A stretch of DNA of 8,716 nt, taken from positions 1-8,716 of the IMG/VR virus record IMGVR_UViG_2579778956_000003, one strand, 5' to 3'. Origin of the DNA: a virus. Lineage: Duplodnaviria; Heunggongvirae; Uroviricota; Caudoviricetes. Every line of letters begins with the position of its first letter. Positions within the stretch are counted from its first letter, which is position 1. The notes under the pieces were generated by a model. That model saw only the letters and a program-made list of their open reading frames with translations, searched no databases and was not told the DNA's origin. Below, one piece after another: positions 1-8,716 of the stretch. A program made the translations under genes and the position numbers.

Positions 1-1818
1 TTATCTTGCGTTTATTGATATATCAAAGAATGCGTTTCCTGTATTAAACATGTTTTGTTTTATATCGTCTGATGCTCCAGCTCTAAATATTCTCCTGAAA
101 TATATCCTTCCATCTGCCACATAAGGCTCTACGGCAAAAAGATTGGTATCTGATCTTATTGAGGTTGTAAGATTATTTGTTATTGAGCCAACAGCACTAC
201 CTGCTATTGTTGATAGGTAAGGAGGTAGTTGAATGTAAAATGTATCTCCTGAAGAATTATTAGTTATATTGCATGTTATAACTACACGTCCAATTACGGT
301 TTTTTGTAAAATATTATGCGTATATGACTGATTTGTATATGTACACGGTATATTTACTGTTGGCTTGTAGCTACCGCTTGCGATTGGATACAAATATGTA
401 GATTGCATATTTCCACCATAAACATAGTTGTTTAGCGGGCTTGCCGAATCTGTAAATGTGAAAAATCCATCATCTTCAATGTATGCATAATCACCTATTA
501 AGGGGCTAATAAAGGTATTCTCAGAACCAGATATCAGAAAAACCTTACCATATTTCAAGCCACAATCCTGATGAGATAGGTTCCTAGGTGATAAAAATGT
601 GTTGTTAAAACCAGAAATTACATAACCAATCCCTCCATTTGTAATACTGGCTGCTTGTGTTTTGTTTATTTTTTTCGGTGAGTCAGAATAGAATTGCACT
701 ACGTTATTACCACTACCGCTCATTTTAAGGCCGAATAACATATTACGAGTGGTTCTATCTGGTGATGACATTCCCCAGCAGTGGGCCTTTGATACTTGAT
801 TAGCATTTCCAGGCATATCAAGTCCAGTAGTATATCCTGAAACTATAACGTTAGAATAAAATGAATCTGACGTTTCATGTCTAATTCCTGCATAATCATG
901 AGAGTTATTTTGATCAAAAGGTGCAATGATTGAAATGTTTGATATGTTCCATCCATACCCCTTAACAATCTTAATTCCTCCCCTTCTCATGTTGAATGTT
1001 CTTAATCTTGATATGATCGGATCCACTCCATCAGTACCAAGAATACCAACAGCATCTATTACAGAGTCAGGGGCAATATATAGACCATCAATATGAACTC
1101 TATCACCTGTATCTATTGCCGTTATTCCATCATTGTAAGGATCCCTCCACGCGTCGTCTTTTACCTCAATAACAACATCATCTGAAAAGTCACGGGGTTT
1201 TATTTCTCCGAGATGCGTGACTCGTGAACCTGATTTATGAATAAGTCTTTCAGTTATACAACTTTTACCTACAAAAATAATATCTCTTTTGTTATCAGCA
1301 GACCAGTCAAGAGCAGTTTGATTTGCTATTGTATCATCAGTTACACCATCACATTTCGCACCAAAATATTTATTTGTAGGAATGTCTTTTAGAATGTCGC
1401 CAACGCTTCTAACAATGAATGGAGCTGATCCAGTCATGACTATGTCAGCACCAGAACTACTCTCAAGCTGTTGCCTTAACTGATCTGGGTCGTATTTTGC
1501 AATGTCAGGGAAGTAGAACTGCTGCGATCCATAGGCGTCGTAAACAGCCATGCTGTAATTCTGCACAGTAACGAACTTTGATATCTGCCCGTTGTAAACA
1601 GGATACCCACCCGCGTTAATAACTATCGGCTGAGCAGTTGGAATCAGATCTCCAGTTTCACTTTCAATATAAACAGGGATTTGATTCGCTGGGATTGTAG
1701 GATCGGTATCTGGTAGCCCAAGATAGATTTTACCGTTGGCATTTGCTTTAAATGAGCGTGCCAGCGTGAAAAGCTGCGCAGGCATCCCTACCACTAAGTT
1801 TGCGGTGATATCTGACAT
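1..1818 (-). CDS. Tailspike protein (P22 gp9-like N-terminal head-binding domain, divergent receptor-binding domain); 605 aa, stop codon at 1..3
   Basis: The N-terminus [34 protein letters not shown]...[10 protein letters not shown]...[10 protein letters not shown]...KYDPDQ closely matches the P22 tailspike head-binding domain as I recall it. The first Met of the tracked ORF (1866) adds 16 residues with no RBS; the ATG at 1818 is preceded by GGAG with a 7 nt spacer. The rest is Gly/Asn/Ser/Thr-rich as expected for a beta-helix receptor-binding domain. Confidence 0.9.
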
Positions 1819-1843
1819 TTCATTACTCCAAACGAATGATATG

Positions 1844-1866
1844 ATGCAACCATGATGTGATTGCAT
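1844..1866. promoter_or_regulatory. Near-perfect inverted repeat ATGCAACCA-N5-TGATTGCAT in the divergent tailspike/mnt intergenic region; candidate Mnt operator
   Basis: The two 9 bp arms match at 8 of 9 positions around a 5 bp spacer. It sits 26-48 bp upstream of the tailspike ATG and about 75 bp upstream of the mnt ATG. Ribbon-helix-helix repressors such as Mnt bind dyad operators of this size. Promoter hexamers could not be assigned with confidence. Confidence 0.35.
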
Positions 1867-1939
1867 ACCGAAATGGTACTATTGAGTATTTATCCAGTAG
1901 GTTACGATGCCATTCCACCCAACTGGTGAGGCATCAAGG

Positions 1940-2200
1940 ATGTACAGCAAATACGACGAGGCGCAGTTTCACTTGAGACTTCCGCATGAACTCCACGAGA
2001 AAATTAAACAGCGCGCGAAGATGAATAACAGGTCGCTGAACTCTGAGATAATTGCAGCGATTGAAGAATCATTGACTAAACAAAGCTCTGCATCAGTTTA
2101 CATTGACGATGCAGAGCGTATGGCAGAACAACAATCTGATATGGTTAAGAAAATTGTCTTTGATACGCTCAAGGAGCTATATAAAAAAGACAGCAACTAA
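1940..2200 (+). CDS. mnt: Mnt-like ribbon-helix-helix repressor (Arc/Mnt family), 86 aa
   Basis: The protein aligns over its whole length with P22 Mnt as I recall it: FHLRLPHELHEKIKQRAKMNNRSLNSEII versus FNFRMPMEVREKLKFRAEANGRSMNSELL, and C-terminal DDAERMAEQQSDMVKKIVFDTLKELYKK versus NDAERLADEQSELVKKMVFDTLKDLYKK. The start at 1940 is chosen because GGTGAGG lies 8 nt upstream; the tracked ATG at 1907 would add an 11-residue extension ahead of the DNA-binding strand. Confidence 0.85.
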   Translation: MYSKYDEAQFHLRLPHELHEKIKQRAKMNNRSLNSEIIAAIEESLTKQSSASVYIDDAERMAEQQSDMVKKIVFDTLKELYKKDSN

Positions 2201-2220: not shown

Positions 2221-2298
2221 ATGCAAAGAGATATGATGAATATTGCATTCTACATATTTGGTTTTTGCACTTTCCTGGTATTTGCAAAGCTATTCTGA
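2221..2298 (+). CDS. Hypothetical 25 aa hydrophobic peptide (MQRDMMNIAFYIFGFCTFLVFAKLF) just downstream of mnt
   Basis: GGAGG at 2212..2216 lies 4 nt upstream of the ATG at 2221. The product is a single predicted transmembrane helix. It is below the ORF-track length cut-off and its last codons overlap the convergent 3' end of the gp16-like gene. Confidence 0.25.
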   Translation: MQRDMMNIAFYIFGFCTFLVFAKLF

Positions 2299-4683
2299 CA
2301 ACGCATCAGACTTAGCCCCCTGCGTCAGAGCGTTAATTGTATTTTGTGCCTGCTGCATTGCTTTCTCAAAGGCTGTTGATCCGCGTGGGGTGTTTGCCAT
2401 TCGGAGCATTGCATTTCTGAATGGCTCGCTCTCATAGGCGCGAGTAAGAAGTCCGTAGCTTACTGCTGCGCCAGTTGTCGCCGGGTTCATTGCCGTCCCA
2501 TACCCAATAATGAACGGGATAGTTTGCTGTCCTGTGGGTGTTGTTACTGCCGCTTTTGCAGCCTGCTGCGTGGATTGCAGGTAGTTTTTCAATCCTTTCA
2601 GATAAGCAGCGTCCTGCCCCTTAAATGTGATGCCAGTCTGGTTTTGCAGGATGTTAAGCTGCCGAAGGAACTGGTCAGGGGATCCGCCAGATTTCTCCAT
2701 CGCCTTTCCAATGATGCCATTGCGCATTTGCGCCCTGCCAACACGACCAACTGAGTTATACAGCGTCTTAATTTCAGATTTGTTCTTGCTGAATAGCATG
2801 TTGTTGACAACTTCCGGCGTCAGATCGCCTTTCATGAGAACATTCTTCAGCCTGGTATTCTTTAGTTTCTCTGCTTCGTCAGCGTAGACGGCATTGGCCT
2901 GCTGATATTTACGGAGAGTATCGTTGCCAAGATTCTGACCAATGGCACCATTGATATCGTCGGTCATTGCCTTGTAAACGCGCTGAATGGCGGCATCGGA
3001 ACGGTTTGGTAACACTGGTCGCTCACCCTTCACGTCCATTCTGAACTGGCTGCGCAGGTCACTTAATTGCTTCAAATCCAGATTTACCGGACCATCAGGG
3101 CCAGCATTGCGAACAAGCTCATCACGATATGACTGAAGTTTTGAAATAGTCTCGTTATCAGCAACCTTACCAAGCTTCTGCAGGTTAGATATTTCTGTAT
3201 CAATCTGCTGAATTGCTCGCACAGGCTGAATGTTTACTCCAGCCATAGCATTCTGAACCTGCTCCAGTCGATTACCGGCGGCACGACGAATTCCTGATGT
3301 TTTCGCCTTAAGGCTGTCAATAACAACCGCTGGATCATACTCACCGAATTTATCGGCAAATCTCTGCACCAACTGGCTTCTCGCTTCCTGTTGCGTTGCT
3401 CTCATTCCGCTTGTGCCAGCCAGGGGGATATTTTCTGCTGTAGTCTGCGCCATTTTCCCGACGCGGGAAGTAGGCTGTAACAGGTCTGTGGTGTGCAGAG
3501 GAACTCCTTCACGCTCTGCAAACCTGATAGCCTGTTGAGCTTCTGGTGCTATCGAACCACGAACACCACGATAAGCAGCACCTAATCCACGTCCGGCAGC
3601 GTTAATAGCACCGCCAGCCAGCACACCAACGCCTAAATCGGTGGCGAGTGCTTCCGCATCATCTTTCGCACTGTTTGCAGCAAGTGATCCAACTGCGTTT
3701 TCTGCTAGAAGGCGAGTTGCCCCCTGAGCAATTCGACCAGCAAGTGTTGGTGCCTGTGTTGCCGCTCTCTCAACGCCAGCAGGAGTGAGGTAAGGCAATG
3801 CTTCGGCAAATACCCTTCCCTCTGTCGTTTGTGGAGTCAGCGCGCCTTGCTGAAGGCCAAAGTCCTGCTCTAATCCCTGCGTTGTTACTCGTGGTGCTGG
3901 TTGATATGTACCATCGCCAATGCCGAGTTTACCGCCAGCCCAAGCCGCCGCGCTTGTTACAGCATCAGTGAGTTCAGCAGGTATGTTCGCTACGTTGATT
4001 CCTGCCTGTAGTAAGCCGCGCCCGGTTTCAGCAAGTCCATTACCAAGGTCAGACATTATTCCGCCTTGCTGCTGAACAGGTTTCGGTGCGACAGAACTTA
4101 CGGGTTGAGGTGGCTGCTGACTGGCTGCCTGCTGCTCAATCTGAGCAAATGGATTATTTGGGTCTGACTGCACGCCTGATGCCGATACTTGTTCGGATGA
4201 CTGTGCTTCCAGTTGTGCAAACGGGTTGTTAGGGTCTTGCTGAGGATGTACCTTTGCAGAGGTGGCGCGCTGTTCGACTGTTGAGTCTGTCACCGGGTCA
4301 CCCGCCCATTGAGCAAAGCGATCATCAACGTAACCGCGGCCTTCAGGTCCTGGCGTATATTCACCACGCTTTGCCTTCATAACGTTGCCGGGACCGTCGT
4401 GATAAGCCTGAAGAGCGTCACGCCAGTTACCAAACTGCTGGTACATCTTTGCCAGATAGCGCGCGCCAGCGTCAGCCTGATATTCGGGGTTTTGCATTTG
4501 CTCATCGGTATAACCCATATCACGCCATGTCCCAGGCATGACCTGAGTCAATCCTACAGCCCCGGCGGAGCTTACTGCGGCAGGGTTGTAAGAAGACTCC
4601 TTGGCACCCAGTGCAGTCATCAACCCTTCTGGCACACCGTAACGTGCGCCAGCCTGCTCTAACAAATCACGGTAATTAGCCAT
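2290..4683 (-). CDS. DNA-ejection / internal virion protein (P22 gp16 position) with N-terminal lytic transglycosylase (SLT) domain, 797 aa
   Basis: The N-terminal ~110 residues carry SLT family hallmarks: GAKESSYNPAAVSSAGAVGLTQVMPGTW ... AGARYLAKMY ... ALQAYHDGPGN. It is the last of three tightly packed genes between gene 10 and the tailspike, and its ATG directly abuts the upstream TAA. A Gln/Ala/Gly-rich linker contains a duplicated DPNNPFAQ(L/I)E motif. Confidence 0.85.
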   Translation of the reverse strand: MANYRDLLEQAGARYGVPEGLMTALGAKESSYNPAAVSSAGAVGLTQVMPGTWRDMGYTDEQMQNPEYQADAGARYLAKMYQQFGNWRDALQAYHDGPGNVMKAKRGEYTPGPEGRGYVDDRFAQWAGDPVTDSTVEQRATSAKVHPQQDPNNPFAQLEAQSSEQVSASGVQSDPNNPFAQIEQQAASQQPPQPVSSVAPKPVQQQGGIMSDLGNGLAETGRGLLQAGINVANIPAELTDAVTSAAAWAGGKLGIGDGTYQPAPRVTTQGLEQDFGLQQGALTPQTTEGRVFAEALPYLTPAGVERAATQAPTLAGRIAQGATRLLAENAVGSLAANSAKDDAEALATDLGVGVLAGGAINAAGRGLGAAYRGVRGSIAPEAQQAIRFAEREGVPLHTTDLLQPTSRVGKMAQTTAENIPLAGTSGMRATQQEARSQLVQRFADKFGEYDPAVVIDSLKAKTSGIRRAAGNRLEQVQNAMAGVNIQPVRAIQQIDTEISNLQKLGKVADNETISKLQSYRDELVRNAGPDGPVNLDLKQLSDLRSQFRMDVKGERPVLPNRSDAAIQRVYKAMTDDINGAIGQNLGNDTLRKYQQANAVYADEAEKLKNTRLKNVLMKGDLTPEVVNNMLFSKNKSEIKTLYNSVGRVGRAQMRNGIIGKAMEKSGGSPDQFLRQLNILQNQTGITFKGQDAAYLKGLKNYLQSTQQAAKAAVTTPTGQQTIPFIIGYGTAMNPATTGAAVSYGLLTRAYESEPFRNAMLRMANTPRGSTAFEKAMQQAQNTINALTQGAKSDALSE
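4135..4236 (-). repeat. Duplicated 10-residue motif DPNNPFAQ(L/I)E inside the gp16-like protein (nt 4207..4236 and 4135..4164)
   Basis: Both copies translate to the same peptide but use different synonymous codons (gaccctaacaacccgtttgcacaactggaa versus gacccaaataatccatttgctcagattgag), which argues for conservation at the protein level. Confidence 0.6.
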
Positions 4684-6015
4684 TTACTGCCCCAAAGATG
4701 GAAGATATCCGTAGCGATTAATGAAGTCGATTGACAGCTCGGGGTGCTGCTTCAGGTAATCTATAGAAGCCTGAGGCGCTTCCACTCGCTTGATACCGTT
4801 TTGCTGAACGTACTTACCAACCGCCTCATTACGCTTCTGGTTGAGCGTGTTCAGGATGACGCCAGCGTTGCGACGAAAGGACTCCTCGCTCTGCGAGTTC
4901 TGCAGCGAACCAACAGCCTGGTCGAGCTTTTTGCCCTCGGCATCAGAAAGTGCGCCCATGCCTCGCATGGCCTGAACCGCTGTCAGGTATGCTTGTGATT
5001 TAAAGGTATCAAGTCGTGCCTGAGTGTCTGCAGCCTGTGAGCCTGGAACGTTGGGGATTACTCCACGTAAGCCTGTAATGCTCTTAAGTGAAGGAGAACT
5101 AACGATATCGTTCAGAGTGAACATGCTGGTTGTGAGGGTGTTGATGCCGTCTTTGTAGCCATCATTTAGCGCTTGCTGCTTCTGCTGCAACTGCTGGTTG
5201 TTGGCTGCTATGCGGCTCTGTATTTCCTGGCGCTTCAGGTCGTTAGTTTCTGCTGATAGCATCCGGTCAAGGCGCTTATTTTCGTTGTTAATGCGGTTTG
5301 TTTCTGCGTCCAGATTAATGCGCTGCTGACCTAAATTCGCCTGGATATCTTGCCCGCGCATTGTGATTGCCTGATTCCGAGCGGCGGTTTGCGAATCCAG
5401 GTCCTGACCGCGCATGGTAACCTGGCGGCCCTGCATTTTATCCTGTAGGTCAAAGTATTTTTCGGGTCCGAGACTGTTCATCCCCAGGTGATCGACAAAT
5501 TCGCCGAACTGCCGCGGGTTCTGTTGGTACATCTGAGCGACGTCCTGAGGATTAACGCCAACACGAGCTAACTCACCGGCGTTGTTTTGCAGCCATGATT
5601 GCATTGCTTCTGGAGACGATGACGCAAGGCGTGCGCCAGCCGCTAAGGTGCCGATAGAATTACGCTGGTCTTCATCAATGAATCCCATGCCTTTACGAAC
5701 AGATTCAATCTGGTCTGGATATTGAGTAGCCAACTGACGCAAAGCACCGCGATCACCAGACGCATAAGCATTAGCGTATGCCTGCTGAAATTCTTTCTGC
5801 CGCTGAGCCTGCTTTTCCTGCTGAAACACCCCCGCAATACCTGAAAGGCCTTGCAAAGCAGTCAGCCCAACATTGTTAGCGCCTGAACGCTCAATATCAT
5901 TGTTCTGCCTGATAAGCTGAAGCGTATTGCCGATGTCATTTACGCTCGGAGCGTTTGAGTTGACGCCGCCGATACCAGCCAATAATCCGCCATTTAATCC
6001 TTGCCAAGTAGCCAT
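4684..6015 (-). CDS. DNA-ejection protein (P22 gp20 position), 443 aa
   Basis: This is the middle of the three ejection-protein genes, with size close to P22 gp20 (about 470 aa as I recall). It is Gln/Asn/Ala-rich with coiled-coil-like segments, starts 6 nt after the gp7-like stop behind a GGGG RBS, and its stop TAA abuts the gp16-like ATG. Confidence 0.8.
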   Translation of the reverse strand: MATWQGLNGGLLAGIGGVNSNAPSVNDIGNTLQLIRQNNDIERSGANNVGLTALQGLSGIAGVFQQEKQAQRQKEFQQAYANAYASGDRGALRQLATQYPDQIESVRKGMGFIDEDQRNSIGTLAAGARLASSSPEAMQSWLQNNAGELARVGVNPQDVAQMYQQNPRQFGEFVDHLGMNSLGPEKYFDLQDKMQGRQVTMRGQDLDSQTAARNQAITMRGQDIQANLGQQRINLDAETNRINNENKRLDRMLSAETNDLKRQEIQSRIAANNQQLQQKQQALNDGYKDGINTLTTSMFTLNDIVSSPSLKSITGLRGVIPNVPGSQAADTQARLDTFKSQAYLTAVQAMRGMGALSDAEGKKLDQAVGSLQNSQSEESFRRNAGVILNTLNQKRNEAVGKYVQQNGIKRVEAPQASIDYLKQHPELSIDFINRYGYLPSLGQ

Positions 6016-6024
6016 GATTACCCC

Positions 6025-6717
6025 TTAAAACAACGAGCCAAGCAATCCGATACCAGCACCAATGCCAGCACCCCAAGGTGTTGATGTTCCCAAAAGGCTG
6101 GCAAGACCTGCACCGGCAATCGCACCAGACGTTCCGCCACTAATTGCTGTCTGAAGACTTGATGGTTTGTTGGCATTAGCAGCGGCAAGAGCTGCGCTTT
6201 GCTGTGCAATGCTGCTCATGTTGTTGGCGTACGTCTGCCCGGCGTTTGCCTGACCTTGCAGAGCACCAAGCCCAACGTTTGCCAGATTGTTGTAATTGCT
6301 CATCTGGTTTGATAACCAAGACTGACCGAGAGTCGGCGCGATCGTAGCCAGTTGATTGCTTGTGGCTGTCGAACCAAGTCCACCCGTCGCCTCCGCAGCA
6401 GCAAGACTCTGGTAACGCGCCTGACCTGCAAGGTCTTTATACTGCTGAGAGTTGTAATACTGATTAAGTGCCTGCCCCTGACCTTCTAAACTGGAAAGAT
6501 TCTGCAACTGGTTAACATACTGCTCCGCAAGAGGCGTGAACGGAGCAAGGTTTTTCATGATCGTCTGCCACTGCTGATTTTGCAGGTCTGCTGCATACTT
6601 CTGAGCTTCTGCGGCATACTTTGCGCTTTTATCAGAACTGCCACCTTTCCCACCCTTTTCAGGGCAATAAGGTTCCTCGCCGCGCAGTTTTCTGCCCAGC
6701 TTAAATGCATATAACAT
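6025..6717 (-). CDS. DNA-ejection protein (P22 gp7 position), 230 aa
   Basis: Length is almost identical to P22 gp7 (about 229 aa as I recall). The N-terminus MLYAFKLGRKLRGEEP is followed by low-complexity Gly/Ala/Gln/Ser-rich sequence. A GGGAGA RBS lies 5 nt upstream, and the start sits 2 nt after the stop of the upstream ORF. Confidence 0.8.
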   Translation of the reverse strand: MLYAFKLGRKLRGEEPYCPEKGGKGGSSDKSAKYAAEAQKYAADLQNQQWQTIMKNLAPFTPLAEQYVNQLQNLSSLEGQGQALNQYYNSQQYKDLAGQARYQSLAAAEATGGLGSTATSNQLATIAPTLGQSWLSNQMSNYNNLANVGLGALQGQANAGQTYANNMSSIAQQSAALAAANANKPSSLQTAISGGTSGAIAGAGLASLLGTSTPWGAGIGAGIGLLGSLF

Positions 6718-6719
6718 GG

Positions 6720-7091
6720 CTATCTCCCGTGATTCAGGAAGTCGATTAGTTCTTCGCGTGTGGCGCTGTAAAAAGTCACGTCATCCACGCCTTTGAAGTA
6801 TTTCTTGATGGTTCCTACTCGCTTAAGGCCAATCATTGCGCAGTACATCTGACCGTGGCGGAATTTGCGTGCAGCGAACGATGTGACGCACTGAACGGTG
6901 GTGTTAGTCAGAATGTATCGCCAGAACGCCAGCCCGATTTCCTTGCTGAATCCACGAATCTCTGGCAGGTACATGGCGTGGCAATCAAAGGTTAGCGGCT
7001 GAATCTCCTGATAGTAAACAATTCCGCCGAACTGCCCGTGCACGTTCACCTCAAAGTAACGGCATACAGTCCTGTTTTCAACACACACCAT
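6720..7091 (-). pseudogene. 3' remnant of the gene preceding gp7 (gene-14 position in P22), out of frame with the gp10-like ORF; alternatively a small independent ORF starting at GTG 7043 (107 aa)
   Basis: The reading frame ends 2 nt before the gp7-like ATG, with the gp7 RBS inside its last codons, as expected for the authentic 3' end of a late gene. Its 5' end overlaps the end of the gp10-like ORF in a different frame. A possible restart signal (GAGG, 5 nt spacer, GTG at 7043, overlapping the upstream TGA) exists but may be fortuitous. Confidence 0.35.
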
Positions 7092-8110
7092 TGCGGACCA
7101 TTGGCGCTTGAAGATGCGTCGTACACGAGAACATGGCGCGCAAGATGGATAATCAGCAACTCATGCGCATCAAATCGCAGAGACTCCATCACGCCATCAG
7201 CCAGTTCATCAGCAGTGTAGGAGCGTAGTATTTTCTCAATGCTCGCGCTGGCGATTGGTGATACCTGACCAGAGCCGATGATATACACAGACGGCGCACC
7301 TGTTGCCGGATTGCTGATGAACGCATACGAATCAGCGAACTGCGTTTTGCAGTAGGTTCCAGCGATACCTTTCTGCACCATTAACGATGGCTGGGCGACA
7401 TACAAAGCAGCACCAACGGTGGTTGCGCCAGTCAGGGAGAAATATTCAATCGTCGATGAACCAAAGCAGACGATAAAGTCTCGCCATGTACCTATGCCGA
7501 TGATGCCGTCAGGCTGCGATTCTGCACGATATTGTGCGCTGTAGCGGTCAGGGTGCGATTCGTCTTCAAGGTCAGTGATAAACCATGAATCAGTACCGTC
7601 TTTTGACCACGCATAACGCCCACGTAAGCGCGTAATGTCGCGAACTGAACCTAACTCATACTGCGTAAAACCGCTGTCTGCAGGCCAGTTTGATACGGTT
7701 TTAACCGTGCCATCATAGCGATACTCGACCAGTTGACCATTAACGCCTACAGCCTGAGATGTTCGACCATGCGCCATTGATACGCGGCCACTTCCGGCGA
7801 CGTCACCGACTTCGCTTTCGCCCTTATACAGCTTGCCACCACACACGCGATAAACAGCATTCTGCGCCATGTTGTACTCGACGCCTCGCGATACGCCGTT
7901 CACATCAGAACGTTTGGCAATGCCCGGGAATGAGCGAAGATATCCGCTGCTGTTCAGGATTTCTTTGGGTGTAGCCAACATATTCACTGGCAGATAGTCG
8001 ATATAGTCGGCGTTTCGAAAGTCTTTGCCGACACCTTTCATAAGCGGAAGTTGCTGAACCTTGAGGCTAAATGCGCGAAGATGGCTGCTGAAAATACCTC
8101 GCTTAAGCAA
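7046..8110 (-). pseudogene. Tail hub / packaged-DNA stabilisation protein (P22 gp10-like), lacking its C-terminal ~125 residues and probably its native start
   Basis: The region from LPLMKGVGKDFRNADYIDYLPVNMLATPKEILNSSGYLRSFPGI to QWCVLKTGLY matches my recollection of P22 gp10 residues ~9-345 at high identity. Similarity stops after TGLY, followed by AVTLR and a stop, whereas gp10 is about 472 aa. The tracked start is a TTG at 8110 with no RBS, the first ATG (8041) also lacks an RBS, and the 5' end overlaps a plus-strand gene. Confidence 0.6.
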
Positions 8111-8365
8111 TCTGAGAAGGAATTTAATGACTTTTGTCGTGAGGAGTTTAGCGAATGGGAAGATGATGTTACTGAAACCCCAGCCACCGATGCTTTCCTG
8201 GCTGAAGTACGGGCGCAGGGGGTAGAGATGTACGCAGATAACCTCGACAACGGAGCAGACGACGCAGAACGAGGTGGTTTTGATTATGCCGTTAAGTTTC
8301 TACGCAGTGAAGCGTCTAGTGTACGTTTGTTCGCCGACCAGCTTCGCAAAGGAGGCAACCAGTGA
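8081..8365 (+). CDS. Hypothetical acidic protein (about 94 aa from ATG 8081; start uncertain, possibly 5'-truncated)
   Basis: The ORF has roughly 22 Asp/Glu against 10 Lys/Arg. No convincing RBS precedes the ATG at 8081 or the TTG at 8051, while an internal ATG at 8228 has GGGGG 5 nt upstream. Its stop overlaps the GTG of the next ORF (GTGA), suggesting coupled translation. It is on the same strand as the downstream AlpA-like gene. Confidence 0.4.
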   Translation: MAAENTSLKQSEKEFNDFCREEFSEWEDDVTETPATDAFLAEVRAQGVEMYADNLDNGADDAERGGFDYAVKFLRSEASSVRLFADQLRKGGNQ

Positions 8366-8524: not shown

Positions 8525-8716
8525 ATGACCGATACCAGCCTGATTCCTGAGAAAGAAGTGATGAACAAGCTCGGTGTTTCATCACGTCAGACAATCTGGA
8601 ACTATACCAAACGGCACGGATTTCCGAAGCCAGTCAGAACCCACCCCAAATCATACCTTCGTGAAGCTGTTGAAGGGTGGATTCTTAACGGTGGCGTTAA
8701 TCAGAAATGCTCCTGA
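8525..8716 (+). CDS. AlpA-family phage regulatory protein / excisionase-like DNA-binding protein, 63 aa (complete; stop at 8714..8716)
   Basis: The sequence KEVMNKLGVSSRQTIWNYTKRHGFPKPVR...PKSYLREAVEGWI fits the AlpA/Xis-type helix-turn-helix signature (L-G-V/L-S-x-x-T-I/L ... FPKP ... W-x-x-x-E-V-x-x-W-I). GGAG lies 7 nt upstream of the ATG. Its orientation, opposite to the late genes and reading away from them, is what a prophage xis gene pointing toward int would show. Confidence 0.75.
   Translation: MTDTSLIPEKEVMNKLGVSSRQTIWNYTKRHGFPKPVRTHPKSYLREAVEGWILNGGVNQKCS

Follow-up and report, generated by a model that had tools for sequence, protein, structure and literature searches.

The window, by which we mean the whole stretch of 8,716 nucleotides that was analyzed, carries a lone mnt gene whose product has the reading head QFHLR, and comparison of related loci ties this Mnt to a specific and previously unassigned candidate dyad, TACC-N5-GGTA, just upstream of mnt. 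We found no published description of this reading-head/operator class. The reading that best explains the locus as a whole is an mnt-only moron in which Mnt would bind at 1866–1878 and regulate its own gene, while the tailspike gene would be reached by read-through and its transcript would carry a stem-loop in the leader (probability roughly 0.55). The gene arrangement is known and common, and the reading-head/operator class is an addition to a well-understood family.

A lone mnt gene between gene 16 and the tailspike gene

The window comes from a P22-like (Lederbergvirus) prophage and covers the distal end of its late operon, whose genes are on the minus strand according to gene calls and Pfam matches. 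For an E. coli prophage at argW/intS, RefSeq annotates an identical gene order. What the window holds is a defective prophage remnant carrying deletions, and none of the complete E. coli genomes has these deletion joints. Its features are as follows.

1–1818, minus strand: tailspike gene, 605 amino acids (ATG 1816–1818, stop 1–3), with a P22-type N-terminal head-binding domain
1826–1829, minus strand: tailspike ribosome-binding site GGAG, 7 nt before the ATG and invariant across all leader variants
1844–1866, minus strand: predicted stem-loop AUGCAAUCA-CAUCA-UGGUUGCAU, 9 bp, one of them U.G, located about 25 nt upstream of the tailspike start codon
1866–1878, no strand: candidate Mnt operator TACCGAAATGGTA, 3 nt 5' of the mnt -35 hexamer and in the place of the annotated P22 Omnt
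1865–1879: extended form of the candidate operator, ATACCGAAATGGTAC
1882–1908, plus strand: putative mnt promoter TTGAGT (1882–1887), 15-nt spacer, TACGAT (1903–1908), in the position of P22 Pmnt
1906–1935: inverted repeat GATGCC-N18-GGCATC with an inner CACC/GGUG stem, overlapping the -10 hexamer and the mnt Shine-Dalgarno sequence
1928–1931, plus strand: mnt Shine-Dalgarno sequence GAGG
1940–2200, plus strand: mnt (stop 2198–2200), encoding an 86-residue ribbon-helix-helix repressor with the Mnt tetramerization helix
2221–2298, plus strand: hydrophobic ORF of 25 codons (MQRDMMNIAFYIFGFCTFLVFAKLF) with a GGAGG ribosome-binding site, 20 nt past mnt and overlapping the stop codon of gene 16
2290–4683, minus strand: ejection protein gene of the P22 gene 16 type, encoding an SLT lytic transglycosylase domain at the N terminus; the final gene of the late operon ahead of the moron
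4684–6015, minus strand: gp20 ejection-protein gene
6025–6717, minus strand: gp7 ejection-protein gene
6720–7091, minus strand: DUF2824 gene, N-truncated
7046–8110, minus strand: truncated gp10 gene (Pfam Phage_stabilise, profile positions 1–332 of 469)

The tailspike protein matches PF09008 (Head_binding; E = 5e-56, residues 1–113), and RefSeq annotates a 'phage tailspike protein' at the equivalent position in L003. Between the tailspike start codon and the divergent mnt gene lies a gap of 121 bp (1819–1939), as the first-pass annotation of this DNA had reported. That annotation had also described an immI-like module cut down to mnt, with arc, ant and sieA absent, and our searches bear this out: TBLASTN with Arc, Ant (of P22, CUS-3 and Kapi1) and P22 SieA found no match in the window at E < 0.4, no unassigned ORF in the window is of a size suited to ant, and the module also lacks sar (no Rfam match to this RNA at E ≤ 1 in 1500–2600). 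Rfam and tRNA scans likewise gave no matches. The locus is an mnt-only P22-like 'ant moron', the name that Villafane et al. 2008 gave to the variable segment between genes 16 and 9 (PMC2629481); here the homologs of those two genes flank mnt and one small ORF. The 25-codon ORF is open in 81 of 81 copies, with a pN/pS of 0.25. This ORF is present in Sf6 as well, where it is unannotated.

The moron occupies the same slot as immI of P22 (mnt – Omnt/Pmnt/Pant/Oarc – arc – sar – ant), and the two share the Mnt fold and a dyad that ends 1–3 nt before a TTGnnn -35 hexamer, with TAnGAT as the -10 hexamer. They differ in that arc, ant, sar and sieA are missing from the window and its Pant hexamers are degenerate, and the distance from mnt to the tailspike gene is about 1.4 kb in P22 but 121 bp in the window. 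A comparison of immI regions across P22-like prophages, which the first-pass annotation had proposed, confirms that the mnt-only arrangement has already been described, in ST64T, ST104, Para1 and phage L (PMC2629481, PMC8022706), and its suggestion that the wiring might depart from the P22 paradigm is thereby overtaken. The role of the lone mnt was left open both for phage L (Zaworski 2020, PMC8022706) and by Villafane 2008 (PMC2629481).

Among the known mnt-only morons, those of L, ST64T and ST104 share with the window the succession of tailspike start, leader hairpin, dyad, Pmnt and mnt. Phage L differs in its reading head (QFNLR), its dyad (AGACCAC-N-GTGGTCT), the size of the gap (135 nt, compared with 121 bp) and a convergent orf62 after mnt in place of the 25-codon ORF. 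The Gally prophage of E. coli LF82 has related late genes and an mnt gene that is divergent from the tailspike gene across a gap of 146 nt, but its head is also QFNLR and it has two additional moron genes between gene 16 and mnt; one of these is on the tailspike strand, and the window has no such gene. Sf101, IME10 and the argW/intS prophages of E. coli share the window's mnt allele (95% amino acid identity), operator and leader hairpin, with 94% DNA identity in Sf101 and IME10; these prophages and phages are complete, whereas the window is a deleted remnant. In Sf101/IME10-type records mnt is either unannotated or named 'partition protein ATPase', and a literature search for mnt of phage Sf101 found no paper.

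The arrangement is widespread. An mnt gene divergent from an adjoining tailspike gene is present in Sf101, IME10, Gally, JEP4 and L, and the same layout occurs in 285 of 5426 complete E. coli genomes (about 5%), including strain W and O26:H11 strains. The tailspike start lies 121–147 nt from mnt in most of 80 IMG/VR loci. In the loci that we compared, all 143 copies of QFHLR-type mnt have upstream of them either a tailspike gene or an HNH endonuclease gene followed by a tailspike gene, the HNH gene being an insertion that is present only sometimes. None of the 143 has arc or ant on the operator side, and we found no full immI region with a QFHLR head among them. Ant, KilA or Rha genes, if present, are on the opposite side of mnt and have their own repressor.

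The Mnt reading head and its candidate operator

The mnt gene is an intact Mnt-family repressor gene that is kept by purifying selection. Its product has an N-terminal Arc-like domain (PF03869, E = 4e-16, residues 7–49) and a C-terminal tetramerization helix (PF11423, Repressor_Mnt, E = 3e-14, residues 57–82), and it matches P22 Mnt in the PDB entry 1MNT over residues 6–79 (E = 5e-20). Residues 56–84 match the tetramerization domain 1QEY (E = 1.5e-8) with about 70% identity by a hand count on the alignment, in keeping with the strong conservation of the oligomerization region that had been noted before. The protein is very probably a functional tetramer of the Mnt family. Among 74 unique coding sequences of QFHLR-type mnt, pN/pS is 0.18 for codons 1–55 and 0.27 for codons 1–80, at a synonymous diversity of 0.33, and 71 of the 74 have a typical length of 84–88 codons, the other 3 being aberrant.

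In P22 Mnt the beta-strand residues H6, N8 and R10 reportedly read the operator. In the 1MNT alignment these positions are occupied by Q9, H11 and R13 of the window protein, so that the reading strand is indeed substituted, as the first-pass annotation had pointed out; when the alignment is extended by hand, K4 and Y5 face A1 and R2 of P22.

To compare operators, we lined up the mnt-proximal 75 nt of each orphan type and of P22. Every Mnt type has a dyad directly 5' of the -35 hexamer and retains the TTGnnn and TAnGAT hexamers. The annotated P22 Omnt, AGGTCCACCGTGGACCT, ends 1 nt ahead of the -35 hexamer of Pmnt (TTGAGA-17-TATCAT). Three reading-head classes go with three dyads at this equivalent position.

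HFNFR (P22, epsilon34): dyad AGGTCCACCGTGGACCT
QFNLR (Gally, L): dyad AGACCAC-N-GTGGTCT, with A, C, G or T as the center base
QFHLR (window): dyad TACC[G/T]AAA[C/T]GGTA

The P22 operator, written as AGGTCCAC-C-GTGGACCT, is 17 bp long, compared with 13–15 bp for TACC-N5-GGTA in the window. A scan with a single Mnt protein gave three loci. The pairing of the QFHLR head with TACC-N5-GGTA holds in all 32 unique upstream sequences obtained from the 143 mnt copies, regardless of which tailspike leader is attached. The link between head and dyad also holds across genera: the same pairing is seen in Escherichia sp. E1V33 and in Serratia marcescens, whose Mnt is 60% identical overall. TACC and GGTA rank among the best-conserved intergenic columns, and the operator is conserved across genera where its flanks diverge.

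TACC-N5-GGTA occurs once in the window, once in the complete Sf101 genome and once in the complete JEP4 genome, and no second Mnt site was found in the latter two when one mismatch was allowed. A scan of IMG/VR found 76 sites that adjoin mnt; the rest are scattered and about as numerous as the roughly 100 estimated by chance. In the flanks that we examined, none of these other matches has a ribbon-helix-helix gene with a QFHLR head, and a family of operator-like sites among them is probably coincidental.

Because its position matches that of P22 Omnt and the dyad covaries with the reading head, we consider it probable that Mnt binds the candidate dyad (A)TACCGAAATGGTA(C) at 1866–1878, an assignment that draws on the three reading-head classes. 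The first-pass annotation had predicted a distinct operator from the substituted strand, and the prediction stands because the QFHLR pairing holds across loci; the site is a different one, being the neighboring dyad at 1866–1878 instead of the dyad at 1844–1866 that had been singled out. The correction matters in practice, since an EMSA on mutants of the latter dyad would probe the wrong site. The three natural pairs, with heads HFNFR, QFNLR and QFHLR, form a small data set for studying recognition by ribbon-helix-helix proteins.

A probable RNA stem-loop in the tailspike leader

The dyad at 1844–1866 has arms of 9 nt (1844–1852 and 1858–1866) that are complementary at 8 of 9 positions around a 5-nt loop. 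It had been called a near-perfect dyad of 23 bp; it is present, but that description overstates its quality, and among 5000 dinucleotide shuffles of the 121-bp gap 592 (12%) contain an equal or better one, which is not beyond chance. We regard the dyad as real because it is conserved in related loci, not because of its quality. Structure prediction also places a stem there on the minus strand.

Matches to E. coli sequences have a mosaic breakpoint at about 1861–1866 of the window. To its left, loci that share this mnt and operator carry several different tailspike leaders, among them the following two; further variants exist.

Variant A: the type present in the window
Variant B, CCGCAGC-ATG-GCTACGG: located directly upstream of gene 9 in P22, and past the ant terminator in CUS-3, Kapi1 and epsilon34

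The stretch corresponding to variant B is annotated in CUS-3 as a 'boundary sequence'. Each leader has a stem-loop of 7–9 bp, and its distance from the GGAG of the tailspike gene is constant. A stem-loop stands at that position in Sf6 too, a phage that has no moron, and stem-loops whose sequences differ follow the ant terminator in P22, CUS-3 and epsilon34. The window's stem-loop would be the positional counterpart of the conserved hairpin that immediately precedes gene 9 in P22.

On the tailspike-sense strand, pairing is retained in 96% of alignment cells for variant B and 97% for variant A. Imperfect pairs tend to be G.U on this strand, where they would be A.C mismatches on the other: of the non-Watson-Crick cells of the 1844–1866 dyad, 10 are G.U when read on the sense strand and 0 when read on the antisense strand, and for both leader families together there are 35 and 2, respectively, at six different pair positions. 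Pair changes include a CG→UG→UA series in variant B and a GC→UA double change in variant A (in E1V33). Shuffle controls for covariation are weak because variation is low, with 145 of 500 and 75 of 500 shuffles reaching the observed number of double changes, and it is the strand asymmetry, together with the recurrence of unrelated hairpins at one position, that makes the case for an RNA hairpin. Going by these sequence patterns, the most likely identity of 1844–1866 is an RNA stem-loop of the leader that precedes the tailspike gene; it belongs to the tailspike module and not to the mnt module.

That 1844–1866 is instead a protein-binding DNA site, whether a second site for Mnt or a site for another regulator, seems very unlikely to us. 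The inverted repeat does adjoin the candidate operator, with T1866 common to both, and its arms are perfectly complementary in IME10, as a DNA site might have it; but substitutions preserve pairing on the tailspike-sense strand only, unrelated hairpins take its place beside the same mnt and operator, and differing stem-loops stand at the equivalent position even in a phage without mnt (Sf6) and beyond the ant terminator in the P22-type loci listed above. The specific proposal of the first-pass annotation that this dyad is the Mnt operator fails in the same way, as the dyad tracks the tailspike leader and not the Mnt type. We also rejected an intrinsic terminator: 3 pairs of the hairpin are G-C, the stretch after it reads CAUAUCAUUCG, and a search of 1600–2500 found no terminator-like site on either strand. 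The hairpin matches no Rfam family, and a literature search on the CUS-3 'boundary sequence' and the tailspike gave no explanation for a conserved leader hairpin.

What a lone Mnt might control

The putative mnt promoter was assigned by its position and is absent from the output of our consensus sigma-70 scan (cut-off 9 of 12 matches, with a chance expectation of 1.9 sites per region). Its spacer is an unfavorable 15 nt in the window, compared with 17 nt in JEP4-type alleles. The inverted repeat at 1906–1935 is kept in the orphan QFHLR and QFNLR types and is absent from P22 and epsilon34. At the position of Pant, the sequences are as follows.

P22: TTGACA-17-TATATT
Window: ATGGCA-15-TAAATA
JEP4 type: ATGGCA-17-CAAATC
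Phage L: TCGGCA-17-TATATC
Gally: TCGGCA-17-TGCATC

Read by eye, both T's of the -35 hexamer and the last T of the -10 hexamer are gone from all the orphans, lost by differing routes, and the Pmnt hexamers TTGnnn and TAnGAT persist where the Pant hexamers have decayed. The scan found no sigma-70-like site facing the tailspike gene in the gap at 9 or more of 12 matches. It did find, on the plus strand across the tailspike start (1812–1840), a 9/12 site that the other leader variants lack, and a further site inside gene 16 (2369–2341).

With Pant, arc, ant and sar gone, the control region of mnt itself would be the sole recognizable target, which implies autoregulation. On balance we lean toward Mnt regulating its own promoter, and probably with it the co-oriented 25-codon ORF 20 nt downstream, into which transcription of mnt would probably run on. 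The operator is centered near -43, and with Pant missing self-repression is not obvious; autoregulation also leaves the strong conservation of the operator unaccounted for. As for the tailspike gene, a passage in PMC2629481 citing Berget et al. describes that of P22 as the last gene of the late operon, reached through read-through. The window's tailspike gene would similarly be a distal late-operon gene, transcribed from gene 16, antisense through mnt, and into the tailspike; no terminator is predicted along this path. Expression by late read-through via the structured leader is, we think, the likely route.

Direct control of a tailspike promoter by Mnt, which the first-pass annotation had raised, would mean that a promoter in the gap, repressed by Mnt, drives the tailspike gene and possibly prophage genes further downstream without depending on the late operon. 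In its position between mnt and the tailspike gene the operator resembles P22 Omnt, which lies over the Pant start, and its conservation without another visible target needs a reason. By eye, weak TAnnnT hexamers can be found on the minus strand (TAACCT in the window, TATGAT in L, TATTAT in Gally). The negative scan of that strand and the decay of the Pant hexamers, which are degenerate in a different way in each orphan type, nevertheless leave such a sigma-70 promoter without support from the sequence, and we judge this reading unlikely. Evidence in its favor comes from Gally, the only orphan-mnt prophage for which we found transcript and knockout data. In macrophages, log2 fold changes are 5.3 for mnt (~40-fold), 4.4 for the tailspike gene (about 20-fold) and 4.9 for the gene after it; two moron genes are also induced (GALLYPH_14 by 3.8), and the gene 16 homolog stays at background (PMC9928086). 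Since the tailspike gene is up while the gene 16 homolog is at background, a source of tailspike transcription outside the late operon exists in at least one orphan-mnt prophage. However, the ~40-fold rise of mnt accompanies more tailspike RNA, not less, and GALLYPH_14, which is highly expressed on the tailspike strand upstream of mnt, could feed the Gally tailspike gene through read-through. The co-induction of mnt, the tailspike gene and the downstream gene hints at a further reading, in which the orphan Mnt and its operator would form a conserved, condition-responsive switch that, in the lysogen, gates transcription independent of the late operon from the moron into the tailspike gene and the conversion genes beyond it. 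If so, the prophage would express a structural gene when its host is under stress; we hold this to be quite unlikely.

Two other readings place the function of mnt outside the locus or deny it one. A P22 prophage Mnt represses ant on incoming genomes, and with this precedent an orphan Mnt might act in trans, silencing antirepressor promoters of superinfecting or co-resident phages that carry its operator and so shielding the lysogen from induction. Purifying selection without a target in cis is compatible with such a role, and Ant, KilA or Rha modules lie near some loci; but these modules bring their own repressors, and with 0 of 143 loci having arc or ant on the operator side we find a role in trans improbable. 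Finally, mnt and its dyad could be a decaying remnant of a former immI region with no present function, a possibility that was raised for phage L by its authors (PMC8022706). The loss of arc, ant, sar and Pant fits this, the window itself is a deleted and defective prophage, and in one reported assay a delta-mnt Gally lysogen had no phenotype, its survival in macrophages being equal to wild type (Misson 2023, PMC9928086). Purifying selection and the constant adjacency of the tailspike gene, with at most an HNH gene inserted, make decay highly improbable: at the synonymous diversity given above the low pN/pS and the intact length of 71 of 74 genes argue against it, as does an operator that outlasts its flanks across genera. 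In hundreds of Escherichia prophages purifying selection acts on this module even though the gene that it originally controlled has been lost, and the module is maintained beside unrelated neighboring modules. The lone Mnt is a tractable system in which to ask why phages keep such 'orphan' repressors.

Repressor systems and insertions in the moron

JEP4-like loci have a separate antirepressor-type module, consisting of Rha, KilA and a small ORF, located 3' of mnt (L005, L058, L062, L066, L073 and L092 among the fetched loci). The controller of this Rha/KilA module is either a C2-like repressor or a second mnt, of the CUS-3 type, together with arc. In these two-repressor morons, the QFHLR mnt (the orphan type present in the window, named for its reading-head residues) is always the one that adjoins the tailspike gene. 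Because JEP4-like loci add a separately controlled Rha/KilA module beside the QFHLR mnt, the moron, which is the variable segment between gene 16 and the tailspike gene, can carry two repressor systems.

Some loci carry an inserted HNH homing-endonuclease gene in the interval that separates mnt from the tailspike start (L012, at 2996-3505, and also L014, L026, L037, L046 and L061); these HNH genes fall into two types unrelated to each other. The 5' end of the tailspike gene is duplicated over a short stretch in the HNH-bearing locus L012. Phage Kapi1 has the same HNH type upstream of its own tailspike gene.

The putative mnt promoter, an inverted repeat and copies of the candidate operator string elsewhere

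In the putative mnt promoter, the spacer (window 1888-1902) is 15 nt long in the commonest allele, which is that of the window, whereas it is 17 nt long in JEP4-type alleles (window compared with loci L005, L010 and L013). This 2-nt indel should change the strength of the putative promoter markedly. The window also contains the following feature:

1906-1935: inverted repeat GATGCC-N18-GGCATC plus an inner 4-bp stem, covering the putative mnt -10 hexamer and Shine-Dalgarno sequence

The repeat is kept in both orphan Mnt types, with an inner stem that differs by type (CACC/GGTG vs CACTT/AAGTG), and no inverted repeat of this kind is present in P22 or epsilon34. It might serve in translational control, as a structure in the late transcript or as a protein site.

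The exact 16-nt candidate operator string, CATACCGAAACGGTAC, also occurs as two copies 515 nt apart in unrelated phage contigs (L103, L107, L126, L134, L155, L166 and L206)–for example, at 2522-2537 and 3037-3052 in L107. The pair may be a chance occurrence amplified by redundancy, or it may be a real shared operator. Every copy lies directly 3' of a TATATA box and 5' of a small gene, within a nucleotide-modification region, and one of these small genes has an Nmad4 domain; the flanks examined yielded no Mnt-like gene.

A small ORF, a deleted prophage and misnamed homologs

Downstream of mnt and at the end of the window are two further features:

2221-2298, + strand: hydrophobic ORF of 25 codons, MQRDMMNIAFYIFGFCTFLVFAKLF; its ribosome-binding site is GGAGG
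8525-8716, continuing past the window end: AlpA/excisionase-like gene, after the truncated early-region ORF 8051-8365

The 25-codon ORF is antisense to gene 16, whose stop codon overlaps it, and had no matches in Pfam or PHROG. Among related loci its reading frame is open in all copies (81/81), with pN/pS = 0.25. It is linked to the 3' end of SLT-type gene 16 and not to mnt, and in Sf6 it is found, unannotated, between genes 13 and 14.

The window prophage is a deleted remnant, with joints at ~7058-7064 and ~8058 that were found in no complete E. coli genome. It lacks ~1.4 kb that E. coli prophages have, namely the tail needle gene along with the C-terminal end of gp10 and the N-terminal end of DUF2824. 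The truncated early-region ORF, whose matches to PHROGs 614, 492 and 368 cover just the C-terminal part of these families, is joined to the 5' end of gp10.

PHROG 795 and several RefSeq phage records (Sf101, ST160, epsilon34, ST64T and ST104) label Mnt homologs 'partition protein ATPase', which is an annotation error, and the mnt gene of IME10 has no annotation at all. Keyword searches miss mnt through this naming error.
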